A DNA stretch of 64,000 nucleotides from a virus (IMGVR_UViG_3300018018_000001:32001-96000), one strand, 5' to 3'. Numbered from the stretch's first letter, positions 7,252 to 46,617 are shown. The notes: generated by a model not told the origin, from the sequence alone. Numbers and translations: made by a program.

Positions 7252-7605
7252 ATGTTTAAGTTTGAAAATTTAGCTCAAAAGCTTGCAGTTATTGGGGGAA
7301 TTATAGCTCTACTGACTTCTATTAGCGGGATTCTACTTTGGGTGGATCACCGTTATACTCTTGTCAAAGACCATAATGCTTTGGCAGGGGAGGTTTCAGA
7401 AGTTAAGAAAACTCAGCAATATATGGGATTTTCTTTTCAACAAAGATCGGTTGAGGATAGGATGAATAAATTAGAAGATCGCTATGAGGGAAAACAAATG
7501 CCTAAATCAGTTAAGGAAGAACATAGTAATCTTACCAAACAAAATGATGAATTGAAATCAATTCTCAATGATCTTAACAAGAAAAGTATTGAATCAGTGA
7601 GATAA
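7252..7605 (+). CDS. Membrane-anchored coiled-coil protein
   Basis: One N-terminal TM segment (LAVIGGIIALLTSISGILLWV) followed by a coiled coil. Confidence 0.65.
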   Translation: MFKFENLAQKLAVIGGIIALLTSISGILLWVDHRYTLVKDHNALAGEVSEVKKTQQYMGFSFQQRSVEDRMNKLEDRYEGKQMPKSVKEEHSNLTKQNDELKSILNDLNKKSIESVR

Positions 7606-8300
7606 TGAATAAAGCCGATTTGTTGAAACATACTTTGGAGGAACTTGCCAAAACCCTTGGAGAATCCACTGGGAAGATGAATGATCTTGTGCGTGAAAAG
7701 ATGGGTGAAGAGTTACCCCATAGAAGCAAGATGGAACAGATTAAGATTAAGAATAAACTTAATCTGATTGAACAGAAAAGGAATGAATCCATGTTTGCTT
7801 TTGTTGGGGCTTCTACTAGAGCAAAAGAGATAATTAAATTCTTGAGTGAAGAAGATAATAAAAAGAAAGAGCAGTGGAGTTCTATTTCGGTGATGGGTGG
7901 AAATACAGAGGATAAACCCATGGAGCCATTAAAAGTAGAGCAGGATAAAGCTGTATCTGGTAAACCACGGGATGGGAAAGAATTAGATTCCTGGATCAAG
8001 CAAGGAAAGGCCCCAAATGATACAGGACCAGTTTACTCACAAAAGAGTTTTGAAGATGAGAAAATAACCAAGGATGGTAATTTAATCCATATAGATACTG
8101 ATAAGCCTGTACCCCAGCTTTACGTGGGCTCTGTTCAACACTTAAATGGAGCCCCTGATGAGTGGATAGGTAAGCCAATAAAGTTCCTTGGAAGGCGAAT
8201 TTGGGCCTTTGCCGGCCGTGGATATGGCCATGAGGTAGAAGTTGGGGGGGAATATGGTATCCTTAGCCTAAATGGGGTGACAGACAAGCCTACTAAATAA
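7605..8300 (+). CDS. Putative internal head protein (leader MNKADLLKHTLEE)
   Basis: Shared N-terminal motif; charged. Confidence 0.55.
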   Translation: MNKADLLKHTLEELAKTLGESTGKMNDLVREKMGEELPHRSKMEQIKIKNKLNLIEQKRNESMFAFVGASTRAKEIIKFLSEEDNKKKEQWSSISVMGGNTEDKPMEPLKVEQDKAVSGKPRDGKELDSWIKQGKAPNDTGPVYSQKSFEDEKITKDGNLIHIDTDKPVPQLYVGSVQHLNGAPDEWIGKPIKFLGRRIWAFAGRGYGHEVEVGGEYGILSLNGVTDKPTK

Positions 8301-8309
8301 AGGGGAGTA

Positions 8310-8906
8310 ATGGGGAATAAAAGACCAGATGTTGCTGAACGAAATAAATTAAAAAGAAAATTAAAACCGGAACCTAAGTTATGCGAATGTAATTGTGGCC
8401 AGTATTCTAAACCAGGAAATAGATTTATACATAGTCATCATATGAGAGGAAGAAAAAGACTTGATACTGTTGAAAGAAATAGAAAAAATTCAGGAGAAAA
8501 GTCTTCTTGGTTTGGTACAAAAGGTCCAATGTTTGGTAGAACGGGTGAGAAAAGTCCTAATTTTGGTAGAAAAAGACTTGATCTTGCTGAAAGAAATAAA
8601 CAGAATTCAGGGGAGAAATCTCCTAATTGGAAAGGTGGAATTTCCACATATCCTTATGGACCTGGATTTAATGATGAGTTAAAAAAACATATTAGAGAAA
8701 AATTTAATCATACTTGCGTTCTTTGTAAAAAACAAGCTAATATTCCTCATCATATAGACTATGATAAAAACAATAATCAAGAAGATAATTTTGCTCTTTT
8801 GTGTGTATCATGTAATTTTAAAGTAAATAAAAATAGAGTTCAATGGGAAATTTATTTTAGAATGTATTTAATGTTAATGAAATTGGAGGAAAATAATCAT
8901 GGCTAA
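8310..8906 (+). CDS. NUMOD3-type repeats plus HNH homing endonuclease
   Basis: GEKSPNFG repeats; CVLC...HHIDYDKNNNQEDN...LCVSCN. Confidence 0.85.
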   Translation: MGNKRPDVAERNKLKRKLKPEPKLCECNCGQYSKPGNRFIHSHHMRGRKRLDTVERNRKNSGEKSSWFGTKGPMFGRTGEKSPNFGRKRLDLAERNKQNSGEKSPNWKGGISTYPYGPGFNDELKKHIREKFNHTCVLCKKQANIPHHIDYDKNNNQEDNFALLCVSCNFKVNKNRVQWEIYFRMYLMLMKLEENNHG

Positions 8907-9276
8907 AGCTAAGGAAGTGTTGAATATTCTTGAACAAGAGGCCCCTGCGGGTCCAGGTGCTGTGGCTGGTGGACAGATTGATGGTCCAAAACCTGCTGGA
9001 TTTACTTCTCAGACCATTACCCAAATACAGGAAATTCTTAGTAAATTCGGAGTTAAGAGTACCCGATCATTCACAGGTTGGCAGTTGGATGGTGGCCTTG
9101 CCGATGCTTCCAGGGGTTTTGTTTCCTTGGGTGTACGTGAGGATGGTTTCTGCGTGATTGCCAAGTCAGGAAAATTCACAAGCCAGGAAGCTGAAGAGAA
9201 TGCCAAGAAATTAGGTGACATAATTACCTGTTTAGGGGAGCTATCTTCTGTTCATGCTTCAGTAGTGGCCAAGTAA
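8899..9276 (+). CDS. Putative internal head protein (leader MAKAKEVLNILEQE)
   Basis: Shared N-terminal motif; SD GGAGG. Confidence 0.55.
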   Translation: MAKAKEVLNILEQEAPAGPGAVAGGQIDGPKPAGFTSQTITQIQEILSKFGVKSTRSFTGWQLDGGLADASRGFVSLGVREDGFCVIAKSGKFTSQEAEENAKKLGDIITCLGELSSVHASVVAK

Positions 9277-10027: not shown

Positions 10028-10747
10028 ATGAAGCAAGTTACCAAGTTGATGGAAATTCTGAACAAGATTAAAGAGCAGGATGACGCAGTAGGGGCTTTAG
10101 GATCTGAGCCTACTATTACAGATACCCCTCCACCTCCCCCTGATGGTGGTATGGAACTTCCTGCCGCAGATCCTAATGTCCTTAATTACGATAATGAATT
10201 CTTTTCTCAGTTAAAGACTGGGGATATTTTCAATGATAAGGACATTCCTGAAATTACTTACAAGGTTACGGGTGATCCAGTGATTGATCCCGAAACTCAG
10301 GCTGTTACCGCTCTTCCTTGTGAAGTAGAGGAAGCCCCTGAAGGAAACGAAAAGAACGTATCCAAGGGGGATCAATTTGATGCCATTACCGCCATGCCCA
10401 AGCTTCCTGAACCTCCTCCTGAGGATGGTGCTGCTGGAGATTTGGAAACCCCTCCGATTGATGGTGGGGATATGTCTCATGAAAATCCTTCAATGGAAAC
10501 TCCTCTTCCTGGTGGAGAATCCTTTAGCCGTGGCCAGAGGCTTTTAAAGAGATTCGGCAAATTGGCCGAAGCTGAGATTTCCAGGGGTATTGTTCAGGAA
10601 ATTAGGGCTGATGGTATGGTGGCTGTTCGTCAGGGTCATGGTGCCCTTCTTGTCCTTCCAATGGCTGCTGGAGTCAAGGCTGGTGATGAGGTAGAGGTTG
10701 AAGACAAAAAGAAAATCATTGGTAAGGTAGCTTCTAAAAAGCAATAA
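10028..10747 (+). CDS. Acidic Pro-rich putative head protein (leader ...LMEILNKIKE)
   Basis: Low-complexity P/E/D linker flanking a small beta domain. Confidence 0.55.
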   Translation: MKQVTKLMEILNKIKEQDDAVGALGSEPTITDTPPPPPDGGMELPAADPNVLNYDNEFFSQLKTGDIFNDKDIPEITYKVTGDPVIDPETQAVTALPCEVEEAPEGNEKNVSKGDQFDAITAMPKLPEPPPEDGAAGDLETPPIDGGDMSHENPSMETPLPGGESFSRGQRLLKRFGKLAEAEISRGIVQEIRADGMVAVRQGHGALLVLPMAAGVKAGDEVEVEDKKKIIGKVASKKQ

Positions 10748-10755
10748 TTGTGAAG

Positions 10756-10845: not shown

Positions 10846-10895
10846 GTTGCATTTGTTAATATTTGCCGGTATTTTGTCTCAAACAGGGGAGGTTT

Positions 10896-13270: not shown

Positions 13271-13726
13271 ATGAAAGCTAAAGAATTTTTAAGCTTGAAT
13301 GAGGAAATAGAAAATAAAGTAAACCTTTGGGAATGGGTTTGTCCTAAGTGTGGAAAAAAGGATTTACCTAATGAAAGTAGGGAGTGTGAGTGCGGATATA
13401 AAATGCCCGAAGAGCTTAATGACAAGATAAGAAAAACTTGGGAAAATGTTTATGACAAGATTTTTTCTAAAATAAAAGGCAAACTAATGGAAGGAGATCT
13501 TCAAGGAACCAATACTCTTTATTTTACTAATAAACTTAGGGAATTGGGGATTATTAATCGTCTTAATTCAGGGAGGTTTGTGGAAGTCCTAAAAATACCT
13601 AAGGAGTTTATTATTTCCGCCTTTATGGAAGGAAAAGAAGGCATGAAACGTCTTAGAAAGATGGCTTGGAGAAGAAAGCATAAGGGAGAGATGATGAGTA
13701 CAATAAGGCCGTATCAAAAATTTTAA
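13271..13726 (+). CDS. Putative internal head protein with Zn ribbon (leader MKAKEFLSLNEE)
   Basis: CPKCG...CECG; shared N-terminal motif. Confidence 0.55.
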   Translation: MKAKEFLSLNEEIENKVNLWEWVCPKCGKKDLPNESRECECGYKMPEELNDKIRKTWENVYDKIFSKIKGKLMEGDLQGTNTLYFTNKLRELGIINRLNSGRFVEVLKIPKEFIISAFMEGKEGMKRLRKMAWRRKHKGEMMSTIRPYQKF

Positions 13727-16178: not shown

Positions 16179-16994
16179 ATGGGGAGAAGACTAATTGATT
16201 TAACTGGAGAAAGATTTGGTAAATGGGTTGTACTTAAAAAATCTTTAAATAAAGGAACTGTTCCTTTTTGGTTATGTAAGTGCGATTGTGGAAATGAAGT
16301 AGAAGTTAGAGGTCAAAGTTTAAGGAATGGGAAAAGTAAACAATGTAAGCACTGTATTAATATAAAGGATTTGACTGGAGAAAGATTTGGCAAGTTAACA
16401 GTTATTTGTAAAGGTAGTAAGAAATTTAAAAATCAAGGTATTTATTGGTTGTGTAAGTGTGATTGTGGTATTGAAAAAGAAATTAGGGGTAGTAGTTTAA
16501 TTAGGGGGGATTACAAAAGTTGTGGTTGTTATAATATAGAAAGTAGAGCAGAAAGAAATAAAATAGAATATGGTCTTGCATCTAAAAGAAAAGTTTATAG
16601 ATCCTATAAACATGAAGCAGAAGAAAGAGGATTACTATTTGAATTATCTTTTAGTCAATTTATTGATTTAACCAGTAAAAATTGCCATTATTGTAACTCA
16701 GAACCCTCTAATAAATGTTCCCAGGATGGCAACAATGGTGATTTTATCTATAATGGTATTGATAGAAAAGATAATACAAAAGGATATACTATTGAAAATT
16801 GTGTGTCTTGTTGTAAAATATGTAATAGAGCAAAAGCTGATATGACTTATGAAGATTTTATTAAATGGATTAATAAAGTTTATAACAATATAAGAGATAA
16901 GGAGTCAACAAATGAAAGCAACAGAATTTCTTCACGAACAAGAGGATGTACTTCAGACTATGGCTTCCGAACCGATTCCACTGGAAACTGCTAA
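16179..16994 (+). CDS. HNH homing endonuclease with IDLTGERFG repeats
   Basis: Paralogue of 6123..6905; GIDRKDNTKGYTIENCVSCCKICN. Confidence 0.85.
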   Translation: MGRRLIDLTGERFGKWVVLKKSLNKGTVPFWLCKCDCGNEVEVRGQSLRNGKSKQCKHCINIKDLTGERFGKLTVICKGSKKFKNQGIYWLCKCDCGIEKEIRGSSLIRGDYKSCGCYNIESRAERNKIEYGLASKRKVYRSYKHEAEERGLLFELSFSQFIDLTSKNCHYCNSEPSNKCSQDGNNGDFIYNGIDRKDNTKGYTIENCVSCCKICNRAKADMTYEDFIKWINKVYNNIRDKESTNESNRISSRTRGCTSDYGFRTDSTGNC

Positions 16995-18357
16995 AAGTGA
17001 GTTTGAAAAAAAAGTAGCAGAATTTGAATATTCAGGAATTTCTGTTAATGATGTAAAGATAGGTTCAGAGGGCACCACTTTAACTTTACAACAAGGCAAT
17101 ATAACTTCAATGATTACCTTTGTATGGGGTGCTGAAGAAGATATTGGTCCTTTTGTTACTATTAAACCACAACAGGGTGAGGCTGTTAATCTTGATTTGA
17201 CTCCTCTTTCTCCACCTGTGGTAGATACAAAAGGAACAGGAAGACAAATTGATGTAAGTAATCTTAGTTGGCTTAATAAAGAAGCATTTGCAGGAATTAT
17301 ATCAGCGGCAGGTATGAAAGAAACTCCACCAGAACAAGAACCTGAGACCCAACCCGGGGAAGGCTCTGGTGCTCCTCAGCAGCAAGCTCAATCCCCTGCG
17401 GTTGAATTGGATGCTAAGACTGTTCCTGCTCCTAAGCCCCAAGGCCAGCCTGGTGAGGCCCTTATTGAAAGGGCAATAGCTTTGGGGTTGATGCCCAAAT
17501 CCGTATCTTCTGATTGGTTAAAAGAGGAAGATTCTTATACTGTAACCGTGCAAAAGGGAAAAGACAGTTTTAACTTGGTTGTAGGTGGGACTTCTCCTGA
17601 AGATGCCAAGAAGAAAGCTAAGGAACTGACTAAGGCTGATAAGGTTATGAATGTCAGTAAACAAGCTAAGAAGGAAATGGAATCTGTTGACCAAAAGGTT
17701 GATACCCAGATGAAATGTAAGACTTGTGGCTATATTGGTGCTGAGCCAAGTTTTCATAGGGATGAAATTAAGGGTTATGAGTACACTTGCCCCAAATGTG
17801 ATAGTCATGACGTTATGGATGCTCCTTCAGAGGTTAATCATAGCCGAATGAGAGTCAAACCTTCGGGTGTGGAAGAACATTGTGACACTAAACAGGAATG
17901 TGCAGATTGTGGCTATATAGGAAGTGAGTGTGAATTTGCACAAGGAACTATTCTTGGAGAACCTTCTGAAGAGCCCGAATGTCCTAAATGTGGTAGTTCA
18001 AATATTGAAGATATACAGGAGGAGAGTATGGAAAACAAGAATATCAGCCTTTTCAGATTTATTATCAGGGAAGGCAAGAGAATCAAGATTCCCCTTGGAG
18101 AGGCCAAGAAAAAGGGTAAAGAGCCCAATAAGGTGGTTACACAAAAACCCCTTACTTTCAAATGGGATAAGAAAGTGAAAGAAGGCATGGGTGAGGGAGA
18201 ATTTTCCAAGAAATTCTTTATCACAATGGCCAATGCCATAAAGAGATTCCCTGAGCAGATTTCCAAGGAACAACTTATCAGCACTATGATTATGGTTTTC
18301 CAACAGGAGAATCCACGTTTTGATGCTGATAGGTTTAGAGCCTTTATCGAAAAGTAA
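16912..18357 (+). CDS. Multi-module putative head protein with two Zn ribbons (leader MKATEFLHEQE)
   Basis: CKTC..CPKC and CADC..CPKC; C-terminal ENPRFDADRF module. Confidence 0.6.
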   Translation: MKATEFLHEQEDVLQTMASEPIPLETAKSEFEKKVAEFEYSGISVNDVKIGSEGTTLTLQQGNITSMITFVWGAEEDIGPFVTIKPQQGEAVNLDLTPLSPPVVDTKGTGRQIDVSNLSWLNKEAFAGIISAAGMKETPPEQEPETQPGEGSGAPQQQAQSPAVELDAKTVPAPKPQGQPGEALIERAIALGLMPKSVSSDWLKEEDSYTVTVQKGKDSFNLVVGGTSPEDAKKKAKELTKADKVMNVSKQAKKEMESVDQKVDTQMKCKTCGYIGAEPSFHRDEIKGYEYTCPKCDSHDVMDAPSEVNHSRMRVKPSGVEEHCDTKQECADCGYIGSECEFAQGTILGEPSEEPECPKCGSSNIEDIQEESMENKNISLFRFIIREGKRIKIPLGEAKKKGKEPNKVVTQKPLTFKWDKKVKEGMGEGEFSKKFFITMANAIKRFPEQISKEQLISTMIMVFQQENPRFDADRFRAFIEK

Positions 18358-19203: not shown

Positions 19204-19494
19204 ATGAATAAAGCGCAAAAAATTCTTAAAGAATTTGCAGAAAGTCCCTTTCACGCTAACGTGGGGGAGGATGATTTTGTAAAGGAACTTATTAGAACAT
19301 CATTGGCTTCAGAGCTTGATGCTATTTCTCTTTATGAACAAGTATTAGCCCAAACTGACAATGAAGAAATGATAAAAGTTTTTGAACATGTTTTAAGTGA
19401 AGAAAAAGATCACTTAGAATTGTTTAATAGTTTACTCAAAAAATTTGACAAAGAACAAGCGAATAAAGAAGGTTACTCAGTGGAGGAAACATGA
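19204..19494 (+). CDS. Encapsulin-type ferritin-like (half four-helix bundle) protein with targeting leader MNKAQKILKEFAE
   Basis: ELDAISLY...HVLSEEKDH matches the EncFtn/rubrerythrin-like di-iron ligand spacing. Confidence 0.8.
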   Translation: MNKAQKILKEFAESPFHANVGEDDFVKELIRTSLASELDAISLYEQVLAQTDNEEMIKVFEHVLSEEKDHLELFNSLLKKFDKEQANKEGYSVEET

Positions 19495-19826
19495 AAAGCA
19501 AAGCATTTAAAGTATTGGAATCCCTTATTCTTACCGAAGGAAAAGATTATCTCTATCTCATAGATCTTGATGAGCGGGGATCTTTCAGAGCACATGTTGA
19601 GGATGCCAAAACAGGAAAAGTAGTCTTTCAGTTTTCTAATGAGGAAGAAGAAGAGGTTTTGGATGATGAAGGTGAACCCACTGGTGAGGTTCATACCTTT
19701 GATGGAGAAATAAGCATGGTTCGAGATGGATATATGAAACATGGTGAGGATATAGTGGGTCTGGAAGAATATCTAATTGACATGAAAATCATACCCGCAG
19801 GATCTCATCTTAAGAAGGGGAATTAA
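19491..19826 (+). CDS. Acidic putative internal head protein (leader MKSKAFKVLESLILTE)
   Basis: Shared N-terminal motif. Confidence 0.55.
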   Translation: MKSKAFKVLESLILTEGKDYLYLIDLDERGSFRAHVEDAKTGKVVFQFSNEEEEEVLDDEGEPTGEVHTFDGEISMVRDGYMKHGEDIVGLEEYLIDMKIIPAGSHLKKGN

Positions 19827-19827: not shown

Positions 19828-20130
19828 ATGAAAAACAAAGCGCAAGTAGTTTTGGATAGTCTCAAAGAGGCTGAAGGTGATTTTACTCCCCAGGAAAAGG
19901 AGCTTATAAATACTGGGTATATTCATATAAGAGATAGTCATATGTTTGGTGATGCTCCTCTTTTTAAGAAAGGAAATGATTACAAATTTGTTTATCAAGG
20001 AAAAGTAATGACCCCTCAAGAAATATATGATGATCTTGTCCAAAATTGGGACCCGCAATCAGAGGAAGAAGTTAGTTGGAAAATGGATAGTATGAAGGGC
20101 TATTTCAAAGCTTTTGGGATAAAGGATTAA
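19828..20130 (+). CDS. Putative internal head protein (leader MKNKAQVVLDSLKE)
   Basis: Shared N-terminal motif. Confidence 0.55.
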   Translation: MKNKAQVVLDSLKEAEGDFTPQEKELINTGYIHIRDSHMFGDAPLFKKGNDYKFVYQGKVMTPQEIYDDLVQNWDPQSEEEVSWKMDSMKGYFKAFGIKD

Positions 20131-21640: not shown

Positions 21641-21795
21641 TGATAAAACCTGAATACCGATGTCAAAAATGTCATTGGTATTTTAAGAGGGATAAGCCAG
21701 GACCAACCCAATGCCCCAAATGTGGATATAACTATGTTGATTGGCTTAATCATGAGAAAGTTATAAAGTCATTAGGTGATTATGGGAGAGCATAA
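21640..21795 (+). CDS. Small Zn-ribbon protein (not in the ORF track)
   Basis: 51 aa MIKPEYRCQKCHW...CPKCGYNY; TAATG coupling at both ends. Confidence 0.65.
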   Translation: MIKPEYRCQKCHWYFKRDKPGPTQCPKCGYNYVDWLNHEKVIKSLGDYGRA

Positions 21796-22352
21796 TGAAT
21801 AAAGCAAGAAAGTTGCTAAGTTTTTTAATTGAAGCTTCTGGTGATACTCAAGGAGATATTCAAGGAGATAATGTAGTCCCTCCTGCTGAAGATATTGCCG
21901 ATCAGTTGTTAACCAATTTAAGTAAAGATTTAAAAGTTACAAAGGGTGAGGTTGAACCTGTTCCTGATGAATTTACTGCTAAATTTATAGCAGTAGATGA
22001 GGATGAGGTTGAAGATAAAACTGATTTGGACTTTACCGATGGTGGGAATCATAGTGCTTATCCTGATTTTGTTCCTAAGGGTGATTACTGGTTTTCCAAG
22101 AATAAATCGGAAGAAGGTAAAGTAGGAATTTGTTGCCATGAATTTGTTGAGGATATGGTCCTTAAACATATTACTGGTCTTGGAAATTATGACTTTGTTC
22201 ATACGGCTGTAGCAGATCCAGTAGAGGCTATTGTTCGATGGATTTATAGAAAAGTCAATCCAGGGAAAGAAGAGGCATTAAAAAAGGCTTCTCCTCAAGT
22301 GGAAAAGTGGGTAGAGTTTTGGTCAAATCTTAATGAGCAATATGAGGATTAA
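21795..22352 (+). CDS. Putative metalloprotein (HEFVE...H) with targeting leader MNKARKLLSFLIE
   Basis: DFTDGGNH..Y..VP...CHEFVE...YDFVH. Confidence 0.55.
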   Translation: MNKARKLLSFLIEASGDTQGDIQGDNVVPPAEDIADQLLTNLSKDLKVTKGEVEPVPDEFTAKFIAVDEDEVEDKTDLDFTDGGNHSAYPDFVPKGDYWFSKNKSEEGKVGICCHEFVEDMVLKHITGLGNYDFVHTAVADPVEAIVRWIYRKVNPGKEEALKKASPQVEKWVEFWSNLNEQYED

Positions 22353-23719: not shown

Positions 23720-25006
23720 ATGCCCAAAGTAAACTATCTGCTTAATGAAATAAAGTCTATTAACGAAATTGGTGCTCAGAAATTTCTAATCCTGGATGGT
23801 GGGGAACAGGTTAATATTGCTGAAAGACTGGGCAGGGATGCTGAAGTCTTTTATTTTGTTCCTTGGTATGATTCTGATCCCAAAGTAGATAGGCCATATG
23901 TAGGTCTCAATCTAAAAGGGGTAACCGTAGTTTATGACTATTGGAACCATCTAAAAGAGGCAGACAGGATATTCTTTCCAGATTGCTATTATGAGGATTT
24001 AGCGGAAAATATTTCTGAACAAGGGTATATTGTTATTGGACCAAGAAAAGCAGCAGTTCTGGAATATGATAAAGAGATAATGAGAAAAGAGTGTATGAGG
24101 GTTGGACTTAAAATGGCTGAGGCCGAAAAGATAAAAGGGCTAAAACATTTAATCAGGGTATTAGATGGAAAAGAGGGTACAATAGTAAAACCAAAGATAT
24201 TTAGGGGGGAAAGTGAGACTTGGGAATACAAGTCAAAACTTAGTGGACAAGCTAAATTTGATGGTATATCCTTAAGTCTTGGCCCATTTGCCGAAAGCTT
24301 TGAGTGGTTTGTTGAAAAGCCTGTTAAGGGCCTGGAAATGGGAGTAGATGGGATAACTATAGACGGAGAGTTAATATACCCTATGATTTGGGGTTGCACT
24401 AGCGGGTATATGTTTTTGGGTAGAATTGATAATCCTGACAAAGTTCCTGAGCCATTTAAATCTACTAATTCAAAACTATCCAAGTTGTTTGAAGAGTATA
24501 AAGTAAAAAGTTTTTTTGGGACAGAAGAAATTATTCATGAGGATAAAAAAGGTTCTACTTTTATAGATTTAGCTATGCGCCTTTCTAATTCTCATATTAG
24601 TGGAATATTTACAGAATTAATTAAGAATTTTCCTGATTTTCTATTCAGTATGGGAAGTGATAAAATTATTATTCCAGATGTAGAGGCTACTCATGTAGGA
24701 TCAGCAGTTTTAGTATTATCTAAAGAAGCTGAAGAATGGGTGACTATTAAATCTCCAAAGGAAATGACTAATTTGAAACTAGAGTATATGTCTAAGAATC
24801 AGGAAGGAGATTACATTATAGCCCCAAGAAAACAAGTAACTTGTGGGGCTCTTGTTGCATTAGGTAAATCATGGGATGAAGTAATCTCTAAACTTCAAGA
24901 GGATTTTAAAAAAATAGAAGCTAGTATTGGATTAGATCCTATACCAGGTGTTAGCGAATATGAAGAAATGATAGAAAAGGTAAATTCTTTCGGGTTGGAG
25001 TTTTAG
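23720..25006 (+). CDS. PurD(GARS)-like ATP-grasp enzyme with leader MPKVNYLLNEIKSINE
   Basis: VIGPRKAAVLEYDKEIMR, IVKP, FVEKPVKGLEMGVDG, FIDLAMRL. Confidence 0.7.
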   Translation: MPKVNYLLNEIKSINEIGAQKFLILDGGEQVNIAERLGRDAEVFYFVPWYDSDPKVDRPYVGLNLKGVTVVYDYWNHLKEADRIFFPDCYYEDLAENISEQGYIVIGPRKAAVLEYDKEIMRKECMRVGLKMAEAEKIKGLKHLIRVLDGKEGTIVKPKIFRGESETWEYKSKLSGQAKFDGISLSLGPFAESFEWFVEKPVKGLEMGVDGITIDGELIYPMIWGCTSGYMFLGRIDNPDKVPEPFKSTNSKLSKLFEEYKVKSFFGTEEIIHEDKKGSTFIDLAMRLSNSHISGIFTELIKNFPDFLFSMGSDKIIIPDVEATHVGSAVLVLSKEAEEWVTIKSPKEMTNLKLEYMSKNQEGDYIIAPRKQVTCGALVALGKSWDEVISKLQEDFKKIEASIGLDPIPGVSEYEEMIEKVNSFGLEF

Positions 25007-25816: not shown

Positions 25817-27403
25817 ATGGCAAAAATCGGATTTGATATTTTAACTCTTCAGCCTGTTCAATTTGCGATTGAAGAGTCAGACACTACTATTGATGGAAAA
25901 AATGTCTTAGGAAAACTAAAAGGAACTTTCTTTGTTCCTAATGGCATTTCCCGAAATAAGAGATTCTATGGGTCAGACGTTTGGGAAACTCAACTTAAGA
26001 ATGAGGATGTTCTGACAAGACTAAAAGATAAGAGAATGTTTGGGACTATTGGCCACAATATCAAAGTCAATGATGAGTCTTTGGCCGAAGGTAAACTTTC
26101 TCACATTACCACGGCTTTGTCAATGAATGGCAGTGAGGGTGTTGGTGAGGCCCTTATACTTAACACCGAAGCAGGACGCAATTTGAACACCGTCTTAAGG
26201 GCGGGAAGCAAATTATATGTATCCTCAAGAGCCAATGGAGATTACAAAGGCACTTCCCACGGTGTTCCAAGTGTAGACCCAGAAACTTTTAAGCTTGAAG
26301 GATTTGATTTTGTTATGGAGCCAGGTTTCCTACAAGCTAATCCAGCATTAGTTGAATCTCTTCATATCAAACCTGAAGAGGTTAAGAAATTAGCTGAGGA
26401 TCTTAATGAAACTGTCGATGTTAACTCCCCTGAGGGTGTAATAATAAATGTTGCCCCAGGTGGGATTGTAAATATTGATAGTGGCAAAACAAAAAATTTA
26501 GATGTAAAGACCCCTAAGGATATTAAAATTGAAGAAAGGAACCAGGAGGAAATTATTATGGAGAAAGAACTTGTAGAAAAACTCATGACAGAGAAAGCAG
26601 AGCTTTCTAACACCTTGACTGAAGCTTTGAAAAGCCTAGAGTCTATCAAGGCCGAAAAGGTGGTTTTGGCTTCTGAAGTTAAAACAATTAGTGAAAAACT
26701 GGAAAAGGCCGAAAAGGAAATCAAGGATAAAGGACCTATCCTGGAGACCTATGAAAAATTGGGATCTCCTGCCGATGTGGAAAAGGCTCTGGATCTGGCT
26801 GAAAAAGTGATCTGGAAGTATAAAGAGTCTGGTTCCCCAGATGAAGTCCGTACTGCTCTTGAGAAAGCTTTTACTGAACTTCAGTCTTACAAGCAGATGG
26901 GTACGGTGACTGAGATTGATGAGGCTTTCAATAAGGCTGAATCCTTGATTAAAAAGTATCGTGAGTTAGGAACTCTAGCCGAATTGACTGAAGCCCTTGA
27001 TACCGCCACCACAATTTTCACGAAATTCCAGGAACTGGGATCTCCTGCTGAAATCTCCTTGGCCCTTGACAAGGCTGCAAAGTTAGCTGAAGGGATCAAA
27101 GATGATAGGTTTGGTAAGAGAGTGGAAAAACTGGCTGGTGAATTAGGTGTTCCTGTTGAGGCTATTCGAGAAGTGGCCAAAAAGATGAATGATGGTGAAG
27201 TCCGTAAATTTGTCAAGGCCCTTTCCGAAAGCAATAATCTCAAAGTTAAGTATTTGGCCAAGCCTAAGCCCGGTGCTCTACCTAAGACCAAAGAAGATCT
27301 TAAGAATAAGCCAAGTATTTTCCAGAAATCACGGGGTGAAGCTTTAATGGAGAGTGTTACCCATAACCAGGCAAGGCTTTTCCCGAATAAAGATAAGAAG
27401 TAG
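25817..27403 (+). CDS. Prohead protease (T4 gp21-like) fused to a scaffold coiled coil
   Basis: SRNKRFY, MFGTIGH, LSHI, VSSRANG, GFDFVMEPGF, followed by a long helical repeat region. Confidence 0.88.
   Translation: MAKIGFDILTLQPVQFAIEESDTTIDGKNVLGKLKGTFFVPNGISRNKRFYGSDVWETQLKNEDVLTRLKDKRMFGTIGHNIKVNDESLAEGKLSHITTALSMNGSEGVGEALILNTEAGRNLNTVLRAGSKLYVSSRANGDYKGTSHGVPSVDPETFKLEGFDFVMEPGFLQANPALVESLHIKPEEVKKLAEDLNETVDVNSPEGVIINVAPGGIVNIDSGKTKNLDVKTPKDIKIEERNQEEIIMEKELVEKLMTEKAELSNTLTEALKSLESIKAEKVVLASEVKTISEKLEKAEKEIKDKGPILETYEKLGSPADVEKALDLAEKVIWKYKESGSPDEVRTALEKAFTELQSYKQMGTVTEIDEAFNKAESLIKKYRELGTLAELTEALDTATTIFTKFQELGSPAEISLALDKAAKLAEGIKDDRFGKRVEKLAGELGVPVEAIREVAKKMNDGEVRKFVKALSESNNLKVKYLAKPKPGALPKTKEDLKNKPSIFQKSRGEALMESVTHNQARLFPNKDKK
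26558..27403 (+). CDS. Probable nested in-frame scaffold protein
   Basis: AGGAGG-aaattatt-ATG in frame at the protease/coiled-coil boundary. Confidence 0.55.
   Translation: MEKELVEKLMTEKAELSNTLTEALKSLESIKAEKVVLASEVKTISEKLEKAEKEIKDKGPILETYEKLGSPADVEKALDLAEKVIWKYKESGSPDEVRTALEKAFTELQSYKQMGTVTEIDEAFNKAESLIKKYRELGTLAELTEALDTATTIFTKFQELGSPAEISLALDKAAKLAEGIKDDRFGKRVEKLAGELGVPVEAIREVAKKMNDGEVRKFVKALSESNNLKVKYLAKPKPGALPKTKEDLKNKPSIFQKSRGEALMESVTHNQARLFPNKDKK
26750..27094 (+). repeat. Five 23-aa helical repeats in the scaffold
   Basis: YEKLGSPADVEKALDLAEKVIWK / YKESGSPDEV... / YKQMGTVTEI... / YRELGTLAEL... / FQELGSPAEI... Confidence 0.8.
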
Positions 27404-27525: not shown

Positions 27526-27548
27526 AATCCAAGACGATGGAGGAGTGT

Positions 27549-29072
27549 ATGAGAAGTAATGTATCTAAAGGTAAAGAAGAGCTTGACGAGCGGTTGCAGT
27601 TAATGGACCACAAAATCAAAGCTGATGCTGAGGCCCTATATGAAAAGTATAGAGAGCAGATGGATCTATTGGATCAGTCTCTTCTGTCCAAAGCTAAGGG
27701 TGGATTAGAGCCCTATGATGTTTACGCTTTGGGAAAGCAGCTTGAATCCTTTGATTCCTATTTGGTCTTATGCGAAGAAGATGGGAACCTTGGCCAGTTA
27801 GGCAAAATCCCCCAGATTGCCTATGATGTTATCACCGTGGCTTATGGAACTTCTATTATCCCCTTTGTGGCTTCTGTTCAGCCAATTGAAGAGGAAAGTG
27901 GACACGTTTACTTTAAGCAGGTGAAACCCGCTCCGTTTACGGATGAGACTTTCAAAGGTGGTTACGATCAGTCTACAGTGTTCATTGATCCCCGTACCGG
28001 CGTTGTAACCCCACGTGCCTATGCCGCTAACACGGTTACTGAGGTTGATACCCTAGTTTCAAGTGGGGGAACTGCCAAGTATTATGCAACCCTAAGACAG
28101 TACCCGGTTCGTCCGTCTACTGTTACCGTGACATTGGCCACCAATGCTGGCGTATATGGCAATGACTTTAACGGATTCGTTCCTACCACTGGTAAAGGTG
28201 TTATCCTTGGTGCTGGCGTGTCTGGCTCCGTGTCTTATGGTGGACCCGCTACCGCTGGCCGTGTGGATCTGATTTTTGCCTCTGATCCTGGTGCCGTTAA
28301 TATCGTTGTTAGCTATCAGGTTAACTATGAGCAGGCTGATGATCTGCCCCGGATTACCACTTACTTCGACAGCACTGATATCTTTGCTCAGGTGTATGCC
28401 CTTAAAGGCACCATCGGGATGTTACAGTCCTATGGTATGAGAAAGAGATTCGGGCTGGTTGCCGAAGATGAGTTGGCTAAAGACTTAGTGGCCGAAATCA
28501 ACGCCGAAATCGGTGGAGACCTGATTACCCTGATGTATGCTGCGGCCCTTGGAACCGTTACGTGGTTTAAAACCCCACCTTCTAATGTTTCTTACTATGA
28601 GCACGTTCAAACCCTGAAGTATGCCATTGCAGATACTGAAGCCAATATGATTGGACATAGCCAGAGAGGCACGATCACTACGATCATTGCCGGTCGAAAC
28701 CTCTGCGCCATTCTGTCTACTCTACCTGGATTCAATAAACTCACCGATGGTAACACCTTAGGTGCTCACGTGTTTGGAACTCTGGATGGTGTCATGATTG
28801 TTAGAGTGAATGAACAGGCTATCCTGGATACCAACAAGGCTATTTGTATTTGGAAGGGAACTTCTCCGTTTGAAGCCCCATCCGTTTACAGTCCGTTTAT
28901 GCCTTTGGTGGTTACCTCTACTCTGCCAGCCGGGAAAAATCCGATTGGTCAGCAGAGAGCCGCTGCAGTTTGGAGCGGAGTGAAAATCCTGGTTCAACAG
29001 TTCATCACCCTCTTGGTCATGGACATTGGGGCGAATACCGCTCCTAACGGATTCGATGTTATCGTTCCGTAA
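27549..29072 (+). CDS. Major capsid protein (T4 gp23-like HK97 fold)
   Basis: ASVQPIEEESGHVYF; AKDLVAEINAEI; YSPFMPL. Follows the protease. SD GGAGG favours ATG 27549 over 27537. Confidence 0.9.
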   Translation: MRSNVSKGKEELDERLQLMDHKIKADAEALYEKYREQMDLLDQSLLSKAKGGLEPYDVYALGKQLESFDSYLVLCEEDGNLGQLGKIPQIAYDVITVAYGTSIIPFVASVQPIEEESGHVYFKQVKPAPFTDETFKGGYDQSTVFIDPRTGVVTPRAYAANTVTEVDTLVSSGGTAKYYATLRQYPVRPSTVTVTLATNAGVYGNDFNGFVPTTGKGVILGAGVSGSVSYGGPATAGRVDLIFASDPGAVNIVVSYQVNYEQADDLPRITTYFDSTDIFAQVYALKGTIGMLQSYGMRKRFGLVAEDELAKDLVAEINAEIGGDLITLMYAAALGTVTWFKTPPSNVSYYEHVQTLKYAIADTEANMIGHSQRGTITTIIAGRNLCAILSTLPGFNKLTDGNTLGAHVFGTLDGVMIVRVNEQAILDTNKAICIWKGTSPFEAPSVYSPFMPLVVTSTLPAGKNPIGQQRAAAVWSGVKILVQQFITLLVMDIGANTAPNGFDVIVP

Positions 29073-30896: not shown

Positions 30897-31223
30897 ATGA
30901 ATAAATCCCAAGAAATTATTAAACTAATGGAAGAAGGTAATATTAAAACTTTTATAATGGTCATAGATGCCAAAGATCATGATGATGCTATTCTCAAAAT
31001 TCTTAAGAATGTGGACTCAATAGAAGGTGCAGATATTCTGGCTAAGAAGCATGACTACTTAGCATTTACAGATTTTCATAAAAGACCTGTTGCCGAATTG
31101 TTAGATGTAGTCAAATTGCTCTTGGAGAAAGATCCAAGATTCAAAAATGAAAAGGATTCCCCCGTAGGCATGTTTAAAGTTGAACCTAATAAGTTTATAG
31201 TATTTGGACGGGGTGAAGAATAA
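30897..31223 (+). CDS. Putative internal head protein (leader MNKSQEIIKLMEE)
   Basis: Shared N-terminal motif. Confidence 0.55.
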   Translation: MNKSQEIIKLMEEGNIKTFIMVIDAKDHDDAILKILKNVDSIEGADILAKKHDYLAFTDFHKRPVAELLDVVKLLLEKDPRFKNEKDSPVGMFKVEPNKFIVFGRGEE

Positions 31224-33896: not shown

Positions 33897-34238
33897 ATGA
33901 GCAAAGCAATTGATTTCATTAAGAAACTTCATGAAACTGGTGAGATGTCTGCTTCAGAACTTGAGCAGGGTGGTGAGTGGTATGAGTTTCGGCTTGAACT
34001 AGAAGGAATTTGTAAAGCTGCAGGATTAAAGTGTGAGGTTAAGCCATTTGACCAATATCAAGGCCCTTATGCCTATGTTGAAGGATCTGGAAAACTTTGG
34101 GGTTTAGGTGATTTTGATGAAGAGGGTGAATTCTATTTTGAAGGCCCTGGAGAGGGACCTGGAGAAGGGTATTCAGGGGATAAAGAGGATATGATTAATC
34201 ACTTAAAGAGTTTGAAAAAGGGTAAGAAGAGTAAATAA
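33897..34238 (+). CDS. Acidic putative internal head protein (leader MSKAIDFIKKLHE)
   Basis: Shared N-terminal motif. Confidence 0.55.
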   Translation: MSKAIDFIKKLHETGEMSASELEQGGEWYEFRLELEGICKAAGLKCEVKPFDQYQGPYAYVEGSGKLWGLGDFDEEGEFYFEGPGEGPGEGYSGDKEDMINHLKSLKKGKKSK

Positions 34239-38911: not shown

Positions 38912-38922
38912 AGTAGGGGTTT

Positions 38923-44171: not shown

Positions 44172-45311
44172 ATGATTAATCTTTCTGGACAATATTCTTT
44201 GGTCTTTTCTGTGGCGGGATTTGATGATTTTCTCACAGAATTAGACCTCCAATACCTAAAAGTTGTAGAGGAAGCGGGGAATATTTTGCCTACTTTCGAG
44301 ATTGTTTTTACTCTTTTGGACAAGAATATTCTTAAGTATCTTAATGAAGGAAATCCCTTCTACATTTCTTTTGGTGAGGATGGATCAAATCTTACTACAT
44401 CCTCTTTTAGGATTATGGGTAAAAATCTTAATAAGCTTGGGCAGGGAAAATATATTGTTAGACTCATGGGTGTCTATAATGCATTTCCTTACTACACTGA
44501 TTGTAAAATACAAATTACTGATAAGGTTTCTGGAATAAAGGTTATCCAGGATGTTGCTTCGCAGCATTTTAGTACAGTGGATTCCAATATTGCAAACTCT
44601 CAGGATAATCAAGCCTGGATTCAACATAATACCCCTGATAGAGTTTTTGTGAATGAAGTTTGGATGCATAGTCATATTGCTAATTCCTTCCCGGCTATAG
44701 GGATAACCAGTCAAGGAATTTTTGTTCTCAGGGATGTAAGAAAATTATCTGTAGGGGATTATACATGGAAATTTGTTTCGGCATATGATGACATTACTGA
44801 TCCTAAGGAAATTCTCATTGATCCTGCCTATAGTATGGAATCAATGACTGGTCTTGTTAATGCTTGGGTGGGTTATGGTAAGGAAAAGAATTTGTGGGAT
44901 GTAGACAAGAGTGTTGCAAGTGTAGATAAACCCGCACTTACACCCATGTTAGCCTCATCTTCTGCTCTTGACCGTTTGACTATAGCTGGTAAGAGGGCTG
45001 CTGAATTTAATTTAATAAATGAGAATGTAGATTCCCATTATTGGACAGCATATCAGAATAATTTGGCTTATTTGACTGTTTTTGGTTGTACTGGAATGTT
45101 AATCTCTTTTACCAAGAGATTTGCCAATGTGAAAGTTCTGGATTTGGTAAATTTAAGAGACCCAGACATTGACCTTGCTCAATCAGGGGAACTTTATTCT
45201 GGTTCTTATTTGGTAAGCAAAGTAGTTAGAATAGTGGAAAATAAAATCCCTGTTACGATGGTTGAATTGAATCGTGAATCTCTTGCGGGATTGCAGGGAG
45301 ATATTAAATAA
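44172..45311 (+). CDS. Baseplate hub protein (gp27-like)
   Basis: Position before the spike; YLVSKVVR...TMVELNRE. Confidence 0.65.
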   Translation: MINLSGQYSLVFSVAGFDDFLTELDLQYLKVVEEAGNILPTFEIVFTLLDKNILKYLNEGNPFYISFGEDGSNLTTSSFRIMGKNLNKLGQGKYIVRLMGVYNAFPYYTDCKIQITDKVSGIKVIQDVASQHFSTVDSNIANSQDNQAWIQHNTPDRVFVNEVWMHSHIANSFPAIGITSQGIFVLRDVRKLSVGDYTWKFVSAYDDITDPKEILIDPAYSMESMTGLVNAWVGYGKEKNLWDVDKSVASVDKPALTPMLASSSALDRLTIAGKRAAEFNLINENVDSHYWTAYQNNLAYLTVFGCTGMLISFTKRFANVKVLDLVNLRDPDIDLAQSGELYSGSYLVSKVVRIVENKIPVTMVELNRESLAGLQGDIK

Positions 45312-46423
45312 TGCTGCTTAGCTTGGCGGATTGGTTCTCAAGGAATGATGATTTAAGTAGACCTCACAGGGGGGTTGTTATTGAAAATAATGACCCTAAG
45401 AAGCGGAGGAGAGTCAAGGTTAGGATTACTGGATTCCTTGAGGGAATTAATCTTCCTTGGATATATCCTAAGAATCCCTCTTTCCTTGGTGGAGGTCAGG
45501 GTTCAATTGATTTTGCTATCCCTGAAATTGGATCTGAAGTAATAGTAGAATTTCCTTTTAAGGATATATATTTTGGATTCTATACAGGGCATTGGGGAAC
45601 TAAAGATGAGCCTAAAGAATTCACTGCTTGGTCAATGGATTTATTCCCCTTTGTTGAGTTTGATGAAAATTATCCTGATTCTTATGGGTTTAGGGATTCC
45701 GTTGGTAACTATTTCAGAGTTAACAAAATTAAGAATACCATGGAAATCTATCATAAATCCACTACCAGTAATGAGACTCGAATCACTATTAGAGATGGTG
45801 GACAGGTTGACATTTTTACTCTTGGGAACTTTAGTATAACCAATTCAGGAGATATAGACCTAAATACTACAGGGACTATTAATGTAATGGTTCCACTTGG
45901 TGGTGCTAAAATTAGTTTTAATGGTTTGGCTAATGTTCCCTTAGTGGTGGCAACGGTTAGTTCACTTGGAAGTCTTTCTGTGGCTGTTCCTATAGGTGGA
46001 GTGAGTATAGAAGTTACTGAGGCTTTAGATATTGCTTCTAGTTCAATAAATATAGCTACCTTAGCTAATGCAAATATCTTAGTAGGAGGAGAAGCTAGTA
46101 TTAATGCTGCAGGAAAGGTTACTATTGTGTCTGGTGGGGATACAGATATTACCACAGGAGGAGTAGCTAATATCACTGCGGGAGGAACAGCTAATATAAC
46201 TGCTGGTGGAGATGTAAATGTCCAAACATCAGGTATTCTTAATGCCACCGCTGTAAGTATTGTGGTTCAATCTGCTACTGCTGTGTTAGTTGAATCCTTA
46301 GTATCAATAGCAGTACAAGCACCACAAGTATTATTAGGGCCAGTAATATCACCAAGTGGTTATCAACCTTTAGTAACTGAAGGTGGACATTTTAGTTTTG
46401 GTGTTCTTTGTGCATCATCATAG
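45311..46423 (+). CDS. Baseplate central spike (gp5-like OB-fold plus beta-helix, no lysozyme domain)
   Basis: NDPKKRRRVKVRI; IPEIGSEVIVEF; 8-residue repeats (ANITAGG). Confidence 0.88.
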   Translation: MLLSLADWFSRNDDLSRPHRGVVIENNDPKKRRRVKVRITGFLEGINLPWIYPKNPSFLGGGQGSIDFAIPEIGSEVIVEFPFKDIYFGFYTGHWGTKDEPKEFTAWSMDLFPFVEFDENYPDSYGFRDSVGNYFRVNKIKNTMEIYHKSTTSNETRITIRDGGQVDIFTLGNFSITNSGDIDLNTTGTINVMVPLGGAKISFNGLANVPLVVATVSSLGSLSVAVPIGGVSIEVTEALDIASSSINIATLANANILVGGEASINAAGKVTIVSGGDTDITTGGVANITAGGTANITAGGDVNVQTSGILNATAVSIVVQSATAVLVESLVSIAVQAPQVLLGPVISPSGYQPLVTEGGHFSFGVLCASS

Positions 46424-46431
46424 GAGTTTTT

Positions 46432-46617
46432 ATGGAAGAATCAAAGTCAAAAAAGCTTATAAAACTTATGAAAAATGAACAGGGTGGTCCAGGACCGGGG
46501 CCAGGTCCAGGTGCAGGAAAAGGAATAGGGCCACAAGGAAGTGTGGCCACACTTGGACGTATACCACAGGGTTTTTTGACAAAGAGGAGGAAGAAAAGAT
46601 TAGCAAAGGGGGAATGA
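46432..46617 (+). CDS. Small GP-repeat basic protein (leader-like SKSKKLIKLMKNE)
   Basis: ATG 46432 after AGGAG; GPGPGPGPG; basic C-terminus. Confidence 0.55.
   Translation: MEESKSKKLIKLMKNEQGGPGPGPGPGAGKGIGPQGSVATLGRIPQGFLTKRRKKRLAKGE

Follow-up and report, generated by a model that had tools for sequence, protein, structure and literature searches.

A short N-terminal leader on mostly unrelated proteins of an uncultured T4-like phage is a probable capsid-targeting propeptide

INTRODUCTION

Why would a phage begin many unrelated proteins with the same short peptide? The question is raised by a window of 64,000 nucleotides (the whole stretch of DNA analyzed) from the 181,621-bp genome of an uncultured T4-like phage. 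A first-pass annotation of this window listed about 13 ORFs with similar N-termini and proposed that they encode a large set of proteins packaged into the head. In T4, the capsid targeting sequence (CTS) has 10 residues, MKTYQEFIAE (PMC8442874), and the cleavage motif of gp21 is L/I-X-E (PMC9026906). We found no published description in the literature of a leader system such as the one in this phage. Here, we ask how far the leader extends, what it is attached to, and whether capsid targeting is the best explanation for it.

RESULTS

The leader heads 42 genes. All 13 listed N-termini belong to ORFs that start at the reported positions with the reported residues, and a good Shine-Dalgarno (SD) site precedes 12 of them (the exception is at 7605). 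However, the family is far larger than the number first given. The leader is found on 42 genes genome-wide, which is 13% of the genes of the phage. Its consensus is M-(x)-K-A-K-E-L-I-x-L-V-E, it spans residues 1 to 12-16 in every member, and the proteins that it heads are mostly unrelated. One truncated duplicate leader, an exact copy at genome position 16819, is additional to the 42. The predicted cargo set consists mostly of orphan proteins of 50 to 150 residues. Those with a recognizable family are a sigma-28-like sigma factor, an EncFtn-type ferritin, and an ATP-grasp enzyme.

Using only 26 leader genes from outside the window (genome 6.6 to 30 kb), we built a position matrix and then scored the remaining genome with it. 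Five window ORFs (30897, 46432, 8899, 13271, and 21795) scored 13 to 20 bits, a level that chance should produce about 0.2 times among 296 genes. Three others (19204, 33897, and 19828) scored 6 to 9 bits. The remaining five (19491, 10028, 16912, 23720, and 7605) scored below 5 bits and are indel or long-form variants. Canonical leaders were present on related-phage orthologues of 16912 (seven loci), 19491, 19828, and 23720, and after this comparison only 7605 and 10028 remain weak members. A full matrix, built from the members themselves, was also run over every ATG, GTG, and TTG on both strands. Of its 35 matches, none were on the minus strand and 33 fell at gene starts with an SD site; the remaining two were a weak TTG site and the truncated duplicate leader.

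The leader had been described as an amphipathic helix, and this is borne out by the mean helical hydrophobic moment of residues 2 to 13, which is 0.49 compared with 0.27 in other N-termini (p = 5e-17). It had also been said to end nearly always in hydrophobic-x-Glu. We found this motif, with the Glu at residue 9 to 17, in 40 of 41 leaders and 54 of 281 other proteins, a comparison that agrees with the claim and is partly circular because the motif itself was partly used to recognize members. The P3 residue of the leader is hydrophobic. In a few leaders, the last residue is Asp or a clean site is missing, which argues against a capsid-targeting role.

Several leader ORFs of the window lie among head and neck genes (coordinates are window positions on the plus strand, unless genome positions are stated). 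A 151-amino-acid protein with a Cys-rich, zinc-ribbon-like mature part (13271..13726; 16.7 bits) is encoded between the terminase (TerL) and portal genes, as judged by synteny with Rhizobium phage RHph_TM30. Directly 3' of the portal gene, a 481-amino-acid protein (16912..18357) is probably a conserved head-module cargo, with canonical leaders on its orthologues in seven related loci. Its family matches are limited to a weak zinc ribbon, and the public gene call begins at residue 17 and so loses the leader. Next to each other are a 111-amino-acid ORF with a variant leader (19491..19826) and a 100-amino-acid leader ORF (19828..20130; 6.1 bits), whose orthologues in related locus L004 (55% and 58% identity, respectively) have canonical leaders. 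The top score in the window, 20.4 bits, belongs to a 108-amino-acid ORF after a head-tail adaptor-like gene (30897..31223). Locus L002 has a 106-amino-acid leader-bearing ORF at the equivalent position in gene order, and the two have no sequence similarity at an E value of 1e-5. A 113-amino-acid ORF between neck and tail-completion genes (33897..34238; 7.6 bits) has an L005 orthologue with a canonical leader.

Four window ORFs had no match in family searches. Two have canonical leaders followed by linkers: a 125-amino-acid ORF with a Gly/Pro/Ala-rich linker (8899..9276; 17.7 bits) and a 185-amino-acid ORF with an acidic Gly/Asp-rich linker (21795..22352; 13.1 bits). The other two are the weak members, both with verified N-termini: a 239-amino-acid ORF with a long-form leader (10028..10747; 3.1 bits) and a 231-amino-acid ORF with a divergent leader and a low matrix score (7605..8300), which has no Pfam or PHROG family and no orthologue in related loci. 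Finally, a 61-amino-acid leader ORF in the baseplate module (46432..46617; 19.0 bits at offset 4), between hub/lysozyme-like and gpW-like genes, encodes a basic Gly/Pro-rich peptide. This position is odd for head cargo and argues against capsid targeting.

The leader is a modular add-on. The downstream domains had been called unrelated, and indeed 41 mature parts share no BLAST similarity at an E value of 1e-3. Nearly all of 80 cargo proteins from relatives have no Pfam family, and the few matches all differ. Where families can be recognized, as in three cases here, homology begins right after the leader. A 96-amino-acid ORF (19204..19494) has the leader at residues 1 to 13, followed by an EncFtn-type ferritin-like domain (Pfam EncFtn-like, Rubrerythrin, and COQ7). 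Its homology to the encapsulin cargo EncC (7s8t; E = 5.6e-11) begins at residue 14, and the leader is kept in 3 of 3 phage homologues. A 428-amino-acid ORF (23720..25006) has a leader helix at residues 2 to 15 and an ATP-grasp fold that begins at about residue 20. In its AlphaFold2 model (pLDDT 85.5), the leader helix is modeled with low confidence and stands apart from the fold, for which Foldseek matched GAR synthetase (2yw2; E = 1.6e-21, TM 0.70). Leaders are found in six close homologues and absent in a distant one (P0115). In this family, the Glu does not keep a fixed position, which argues against capsid targeting. For the sigma-28-like factor, relatives align from residue 15-24, and the leader is kept only in two close phage homologues. 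The ATP-grasp protein and the EncFtn-type ferroxidase homologue also uphold the description of the set as partly enzymatic.

The phage encodes a gp21-family protease, and its predicted substrates share the motif. The ATP-grasp gene is the last large gene 5' of the protease gene, and one small endonuclease-like ORF (25007-25630) intervenes. As had been proposed, the protease (25817..27403) is in the T4 gp21 family (Pfam Peptidase_S77, PF03420; PHROG, head maturation protease) and matches the T4 gp21 structure 5jbl. An AlphaFold2 model placed the protease domain at residues ~25-175 and, fused to it, a helical scaffold-like domain at residues 241-480. His80 and Ser137 are invariant and align with residues in 5jbl that we take to be the catalytic positions. 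The major capsid protein (27537..29072) is in the T4 gp23 family (Pfam Gp23), with 45% identity to the RHph_TM30 capsid protein.

The two cleavage motifs quoted earlier are present, ALVE at residues 177-180 of the protease and VLCE at residues 77-80 of the capsid protein. The first is a predicted self-cleavage site, A-L-V-E|S (26345..26356), at the junction of protease and scaffold, where [L/I/V]-V-E-S hardly varies among 14 homologues. In the AlphaFold2 model, it sits at the end of the folded domain and is followed by a disordered linker. The second is a predicted maturation site, V-L-C-E|E (27765..27776), ~35 residues N-terminal of a conserved V-Q-P motif, and [L/I/M/F]-x-E is kept at this column in ~35 related capsid proteins. 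Judging from these predicted sites, hydrophobic-x-Glu is common to three presumed substrate classes: the leaders, the protease junction, and the capsid protein.

Relatives have the leader near their head genes. In related contigs, the leader was found on 163 of 1,022 gene-strand ORFs (~16%) within 10 kb of the protease gene versus 4 of 307 opposite-strand ORFs, counts that include some loci duplicated between collections. Leaders in uncultured relatives are the same or lineage variants, and one protease clade has the variant M-x-L-I-x-E-L-x-x-L-L-E. At locus L009, leader genes are placed between the protease, capsid, and sheath genes. The cultured Ralstonia phage RP13 has ~7 leader genes, 6 of them in the head module, and its capsid protein itself begins with an RP13-type leader, as judged by eye.

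Small orphan ORFs form an island that holds most leader genes. All 42 are on the plus strand between 6.6 and 78.6 kb of the genome, with none in the other half. The block that holds all structural genes has the leader on 41 of 160 genes, compared with 0 of 162 elsewhere, and the leader-free part includes a region with intergenic sigma-28-type promoters. We looked for a promoter shared by the leader-gene block and found none. Of the 42 leader genes, 29 are in an island (genome 6.6 to 30 kb) that has no recognizable virion gene among its ORFs and looks like an accessory or early region. This argues against capsid targeting, as does the acidity of many mature parts (pI 4 to 5).

The leader could instead have nothing to do with the capsid and act as an address or regulatory tag, such as a helix that docks onto a phage or host hub (a chaperone, AAA+ unfoldase, or RNA polymerase) or an N-terminal degron that sets when accessory proteins are turned over. 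Its terminal Glu would then be part of a binding motif and not a protease site. The accessory-looking island and the acidic proteins fit this explanation, and so does a tagged sigma factor, which must act in the cytoplasm. However, the tag ends in a motif conserved in the phage's own capsid protein and protease, and relatives, including RP13, place tagged genes among protease, capsid, and sheath genes or in the head module. Also, the solved relatives matched by the EncFtn cargo are all encapsulin cargo or shell fusions, and apart from the scaffold, no candidate receptor is conserved alongside the tag. We consider this explanation unlikely.

It is far less probable that the leader is a recognition sequence for a modifying enzyme, as in RiPP-like systems. 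The idea is raised by a radical-SAM gene amid the leader genes of the island (genome 8915-9784). However, the enzyme is a member of KamA, a family of amino-acid 2,3-aminomutases (TIGR00238; 238 bits, cutoff 199), and it best matches aminomutases that act on free amino acids and EpmB, which modifies EF-P. None of the SPASM or peptide-maturase models matched it better than an E value of 1e-6. Two other ORFs have a radical-SAM-like Cys motif, and neither was confirmed by Pfam. None of the three has a homologue in the related loci searched (L001-L072 and L075-L077), which hold >160 leader ORFs.

Selection on the leader acts on the peptide and not the DNA. At identical leader residues, codon identity is 0.51 versus 0.445 expected from codon usage, so synonymous codons are almost free. 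Mean nucleotide identity is 0.55 among the leaders and 0.33 in the 30 nt upstream, where the DNA is unrelated apart from the SD site. Conservation tracks residue class and helical periodicity. Lys/Ala-rich second codons are frequent in well-translated genes, and the truncated exact copy at genome 16819 shows that recombination has occurred at leaders or close to them, but the codon, upstream, and residue-class patterns leave very little room for a shared DNA or RNA element (a cassette-shuffling recombination site or a translational operator or enhancer) with peptide likeness as its by-product.

DISCUSSION

Our analysis suggests that the leader is probably a T4-type capsid-targeting propeptide, used on a very large scale to load proteins into the head before it is clipped off. 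The sequence-level predictions of this interpretation that we examined all came out in its favor: an S77 protease, a common motif, a modular leader, conservation across the clade, a head-gene neighborhood, and absence from the half with sigma-28-type promoters. However, the first-pass annotation had also asked whether the motif occurs in non-virion genes, and here the answer is not clean, because 29 of the 42 leader genes are in the orphan-ORF island. In addition, 42 cargo species per head would mean a low copy number of each, another point against capsid targeting.

The leader had been presented as distinct from that of T4, but it is less distinct than claimed. Both are short amphipathic tags (10 to 13 residues) at the extreme N-terminus of otherwise unrelated, fast-evolving proteins, and both end in hydrophobic-x-Glu. 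Their residue patterns look similar (K-[T/A]-x-x-E-[F/L]-I), a likeness that with only 10 residues is too short to assess statistically. Both phages have a gp21-family protease and a gp23-family capsid protein, and here the L/I-X-E-type motif also recurs at predicted sites in the head proteins. There are also differences. This phage has 42 tagged genes and T4 a handful, its leader is 1 to 3 residues longer, and its protease and scaffold form one fusion protein. Many of the putative cargo proteins here are acidic, in contrast to the basic internal proteins of T4. The sigma factor, ferritin, and ATP-grasp enzyme also set this predicted cargo apart from that of T4.

Two other packaging systems are instructive. 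In the phiKZ-like giant phages (phiKZ, 201phi2-1, and SPN3US), inner-body and ejection proteins are processed by gp175/gp245 (PMC5694885, PMC9026906). As predicted here, a diverged gp21 homologue cleaves many proteins of the head interior after Glu. Their propeptides are thought to target proteins into the prohead, and these phages are known to deliver transcription machinery with the virion. However, ~19 proteins are processed, the propeptides are mostly >100 residues with no one shared short tag, the motif is S/A/G-x-E, and the packaged item is a multisubunit RNA polymerase and not a sigma factor. The leader described here is 12 to 16 residues, is common to many proteins, and has a hydrophobic P3 residue, and so it is not a propeptide of the phiKZ type.

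Encapsulin cargo-loading peptides (Myxococcus EncB/EncC, 7s8t and 7s5k; Pyrococcus, 2e0z) also address unrelated cargo into an HK97-fold shell, and the phage protein at 19204 shares true homology with EncFtn and EncC. In encapsulins, the loading peptide usually sits at the C-terminus of the cargo, contacts the shell protein directly, and stays uncleaved. In contrast, the phage tag sits at the N-terminus and finishes with a protease motif, and the phage EncFtn proteins end 3 to 9 residues past the ferritin domain, with no C-terminal extension. The leader is not an encapsulin-type loading peptide.

If the leader is a capsid-targeting propeptide, its proteins would be expressed late, and the amphipathic helix of each new protein would dock onto the scaffolding core through a hydrophobic face made of residues 4, 7, 8, and 11. 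The C-terminal, helical half of the fused protease and scaffold would form this core, perhaps with a contribution from the capsid-protein propeptide of 80 residues, and the capsid shell would close around the core and the bound cargo. The gp21-family serine protease would then cut after the Glu of hydrophobic-x-Glu, at leader residue 9 to 15 and mostly 12 to 13. With the same specificity, it would release itself from the scaffold (ALVE|S) and remove the capsid-protein propeptide (LCE|E). The clipped leader would leave the head, and the mature cargo would stay with the DNA, so that at least some of it could be delivered to the next host.

A shared leader on 42 genes

The first-pass annotation placed a common N-terminal leader on 13 proteins, and we confirmed all 13 at their window positions (genes 7605, 8899, 10028, 13271, 16912, 19204, 19491, 19828, 21795, 23720, 30897, 33897, and 46432). 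In a crude gene call of the whole genome, about 29 additional small ORFs also start with this leader; they form an island at genome positions 6.6 to 30 kb, immediately upstream of the window. Aligned, the leaders give the consensus M-(S/N/D)-K-A-K-E/K-L/I-I/L-x-L/F-V/L-E-E, in which the Met may be followed by one extra residue. The leader had been described as amphipathic and the downstream domains as unrelated. Both descriptions hold: residues 2 to 13 are strongly amphipathic, and the mature parts (median length, about 93 aa) share no mutual similarity by BLAST.

We trained a position matrix on 26 of the upstream leader genes only and then applied it to the remaining 296 genes. Five window genes scored 13 to 20 bits (chance expectation, 0.1 to 0.3), and three more scored 6 to 9 bits. 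Genes 19491, 10028, 16912, 23720, and 7605 had low scores because of indels or a 16-residue long form. Orthologues of 19491, 19828, and 23720 in related contigs start with canonical leaders, and so do the proteins of the 16912 family in seven related loci. Therefore, the public call of the 481-aa 16912 protein is probably a start-codon error: it begins at residue 17, too late to include the leader (window 16912-16959).

A scan with the full matrix covered every ATG, GTG, and TTG on both strands at a cut-off of at least 11 bits. It gave 35 matches, 33 of them gene starts preceded by an SD site and none on the minus strand. One mis-started gene (genome 10715-11041) was added, which brought the total to 42 leader genes. 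The crude call has this gene at 10505-11041, likely a start-codon error (10505-10714). One other match is a truncated exact duplicate of a neighboring leader. The leader gene at genome 16726-16902 holds, at its 3' end (16819-16902; L073:10819-10902), an exact 13-residue copy of the leader that the gene at 16351 carries. The copy includes the GTG start and is followed by a 341-nt gap without ORFs. The arrangement suggests a recent event at a leader, either duplication or recombination, with decay of the downstream gene.

Putative cargo begins behind the leader

Most of the putative cargo has no family in Pfam, PHROG, or NCBIfam, and the ESM Atlas held no usable match for the 16912 protein. Gene 19204 encodes a 96-aa EncFtn-type ferritin that matches EncC (7s8t; E = 5.6e-11), a Pyrococcus encapsulin-ferritin fusion, and EncB. 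Its alignment to encapsulin cargo begins at residue 14, directly after the leader Glu. The three database homologues, one of which (P0117) is on a 113-kb contig, are all metagenome-derived, and all have a leader and lack a C-terminal extension. No match to the EncFtn protein was found in cultured phages by tblastn.

A 428-aa protein is encoded by 23720-25006, the final large gene ahead of the protease gene. Its AlphaFold model (pLDDT 85.5) matches GAR synthetase (Foldseek E = 1.6e-21; TM 0.70), so the protein is predicted to fold as an ATP-grasp enzyme. The leader is a detached, low-confidence helix in this model. Six close homologues have leaders, and one that is 24% identical does not. Among cultured phages, tblastn matches were confined to Aquificae spring viruses. 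The leader-gene island upstream of the window contains a gene for a KamA-family radical-SAM amino-acid 2,3-aminomutase (genome 8915-9784; L073:2915-3784). Together, the aminomutase and the leader-tagged ATP-grasp ligase suggest a beta-amino-acid ligation activity.

A 247-aa sigma factor (genome 28570-29313) has sigma-70 regions 2, 3, and 4 from residue 23. It has 28,467 homologues at an E value of 0.001 or better. We read the N-termini of the best 30 of these, and the leader is present in just two, the closest homologues, at 68% and 58% identity. Nearly all of the other 148 matches listed, of the 28,467, align from residue 15 to 24 on. As judged by these alignments, the leader is a module, with ferritin, ATP-grasp, and sigma-factor homology each beginning behind it.

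The leader ends in the motif of the prohead protease

The window spans bases 32,001-96,000 of a single 181,621-bp contig (36.5% G+C) and contains the structural module of a myovirus that is a distant relative of T4. The genes were identified by synteny with, and BLAST matches to, Rhizobium phage RHph_TM30 (Kleczkowskaviridae). They encode the terminase (11367-13259), portal (14428-16161), a conserved 251-aa head protein (18446-19201), a protease-scaffold fusion (25817-27403), the major capsid protein (27537-29072; Pfam Gp23 family), and the sheath (36481-38322), as well as tube and baseplate proteins. Rfam and tRNA scans found no RNA genes in the window.

The protease had been called gp21-like, and this was borne out by its Pfam family (Peptidase_S77, that of T4 gp21) and by its alignment to the T4 gp21 structure 5jbl. 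Its invariant residues His80 and Ser137 align to this structure, and we take them to be the catalytic positions. The His-aligned position in the crystallised 5jbl chain is Ala, presumably an inactivating mutation. AlphaFold2 predicted a confident protease domain (residues 25 to 175), a disordered linker (185 to 245), and a C-terminal half that consists only of helices and has repeated hairpins, as would be expected of a scaffold.

T4 gp21 cleaves after L/I-X-E (PMC9026906). The T4 capsid targeting sequence (CTS; sequence from PMC8442874) is the first 10 residues of IPIII, of which residues 4 and 7 act in targeting and residues 8 and 10 in processing (PMC9026906). Here, hydrophobic-x-Glu with the Glu at residues 9 to 17 occurs in 40 of 41 leaders versus 54 of 281 other proteins, a comparison that is partly circular because the motif helped to define the members. 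The first-pass annotation had also pointed to the same pattern in the protease and the capsid protein, and both of these sites are present. The most common leader ending, L-V-E, is the tripeptide in A-L-V-E|S at the end of the protease domain, where it is nearly invariant in 14 homologues, down to 38% identity. A putative site of the form [L/I/M/F]-x-E (here L-C-E|E, residues 78 to 80) is conserved in about 35 related capsid proteins. It lies about 35 residues ahead of a conserved V-Q-P motif, the position at which gp23 is cut in T4.

A neck/head-completion gene (31973-33460) is split by an intein (Pfam Intein_splicing; E = 1.9e-17) that has an HNH-like insert; the C-terminus of the gene product shares homology with a 168-aa protein of RHph_TM30. 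ORFs from repeated Cys-rich and GIY-YIG-like families occupy junctions between conserved structural genes, often adjoining leader genes (window 3526, 6123, 8310, 10896, 13743, 16179, 20151, 22397, 25007, 30185, 31213, 34450, 35743, 47869, and 57854). These look like free-standing homing endonucleases, and RHph_TM30 has none at the corresponding junctions. In the 61-aa ORF at 46432-46617, a good leader precedes a Gly/Pro-repeat peptide that is basic (pI 11.6). This ORF lies in the baseplate module between hub/lysozyme-like and gpW-like genes, an odd place for head cargo.

Leader genes lie with the structural genes

The plus-strand block at 0 to 93 kb, which contains all of the structural genes, has leaders on 41 of its 160 genes, versus none of 162 elsewhere. 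Leader genes are contiguous with structural genes. Intergenic promoters that are clearly of the sigma-28 type (C-T-A-A-A-C-T-T-T, about 14 nt, G-C-C-G-A-T-A-A) are all at 94 to 178 kb, apart from one antisense copy, and none precedes a leader gene. Therefore, the leader genes belong to a transcription class different from that of the replication and accessory genes. Within the 0- to 93-kb block, no 7-mer was enriched upstream of genes, and sigma-70-type sites were no more common than in shuffled sequence. The T4 late motif TATAAATA was scattered over both strands. Because no promoters were found for this block, late expression of the 6.6- to 30-kb island is something that we infer.

The intergenic region before the protease gene (window 25631-25816) has two divergent promoter-like sites. 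One, on the plus strand, is a near-consensus sigma-70 site (TTGATT, 17 nt, TATAAT) directed toward the protease gene. The other, on the minus strand, reproduces the phage's sigma-28-type promoter perfectly and is the only one of its kind in the block. It is antisense to the endonuclease-like ORF at 25007-25630 and then to the ATP-grasp and other leader genes.

Related loci and Ralstonia phage RP13 have the leader

Scanning viral contigs with the capsid protein found no relatives. A protease alignment search found 69 related loci in metagenomes and IMG/VR. In many of them, neighboring ORFs are far more alike at their N-termini than internally. One locus (L050) had 55 N-terminal pair matches versus 3 internal ones, and 12 or 13 leader ORFs in 15 kb. 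The leader pattern occurred in 163 of 1,022 gene-strand ORFs versus 4 of 307 opposite-strand ORFs, with some loci duplicated between the two collections. Most lineages have the K-A type of leader. One well-supported protease clade has M-x-L-I-x-E-L-x-x-L-L-E, and four of the five loci with this variant fall in that clade. This shows inheritance only and is no evidence of coevolution with a receptor. In another locus (L009), leader genes separate the capsid gene from the protease gene and also from the sheath gene. Almost none of 80 cargo proteins from relatives had a Pfam family, the exceptions being single matches to Peptidase_C92 and AAA.

The cultured Ralstonia phage RP13 (LC554890) has about seven leader ORFs, six of which flank head genes. 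The candidates are ORF65, 66, 67, 75, 79, 80, and 131. In these, Ala or Ser follows the I-N-E or I-x-E that ends the leader. The RP13 capsid protein begins with the same kind of peptide, as judged by eye, and has a further predicted cleavage site, F-C-E|S. RP13 ORF75 is annotated 30 nt short of its leader-bearing start (L070:19351-19380), likely a start-codon error. The RP13 record (L076) also has annotated fragments of a multisubunit RNA polymerase (beta/beta'; L076:34443-35996 and 38712-40172). Therefore, RP13, the nearest cultured relative with leaders, may possess transcription machinery of its own as well.

A candidate capsid-targeting system

The most likely reading, which we consider reasonably probable, is that the leader marks a capsid-targeting propeptide system of the T4 type that has grown to 42 genes. 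It would be the same kind of system as the T4 CTS. It differs in its scale, its leader sequence, its fused protease-scaffold, and its cargo, which includes a sigma factor, an encapsulin-type ferritin, an ATP-grasp enzyme, and many acidic orphan proteins.

The leader of the island genes could possibly be a non-capsid address tag or a degron instead. Such a tag or degron would not account for the leader matching the protease motif, for the position of leader genes in the head modules of relatives and of RP13, or for the EncFtn cargo. A radical-SAM recognition tag was rejected, as the island gene is of the KamA aminomutase family and has no homologue in any of the related loci searched (L001-L072 and L075-L077). 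A DNA- or RNA-level signal is excluded by codon analysis: codon identity at shared residues between leader pairs is 51%, versus 44.5% predicted from genome codon usage, leaders use all four Ala codons and five Leu codons, and the SD site is the sole common feature in the 30 nt upstream. Codon choice is nearly free and the upstream DNA is unrelated; therefore, the constraint is on the peptide.

Our literature searches found no published description of the leader or of a phage EncFtn, and no report of a packaged or virion-delivered sigma factor. A bolder and rather doubtful extension of the targeting reading is that the head in this clade is a programmable delivery compartment, in which one 12-residue label loads dozens of fast-evolving effectors, including a sigma-28-type sigma factor and the encapsulin-type ferritin. 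The packaged sigma factor would then switch on the phage's own sigma-28-type promoters at DNA entry, the ferritin would link phage capsids and encapsulins by shared cargo, and sequence would directly reveal which proteins uncultured phages inject.

If the leader acts like the T4 CTS, virion cargo would make up 13% of the phage's genes, by far the largest set on a single address label. A virion-delivered sigma factor is then predicted, and the EncFtn cargo touches on the long-discussed kinship of phage capsids and encapsulins. As a short natural tag, the leader would also serve to load foreign proteins into capsids other than those of T4. Cultured RP13 carries the same kind of leader, and therefore the idea is directly testable. 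For a clade known almost only from metagenomes, the proteins brought into the cell could be listed by sequence alone, and dozens of orphan proteins would become candidates for first-minute host takeover or anti-defense.
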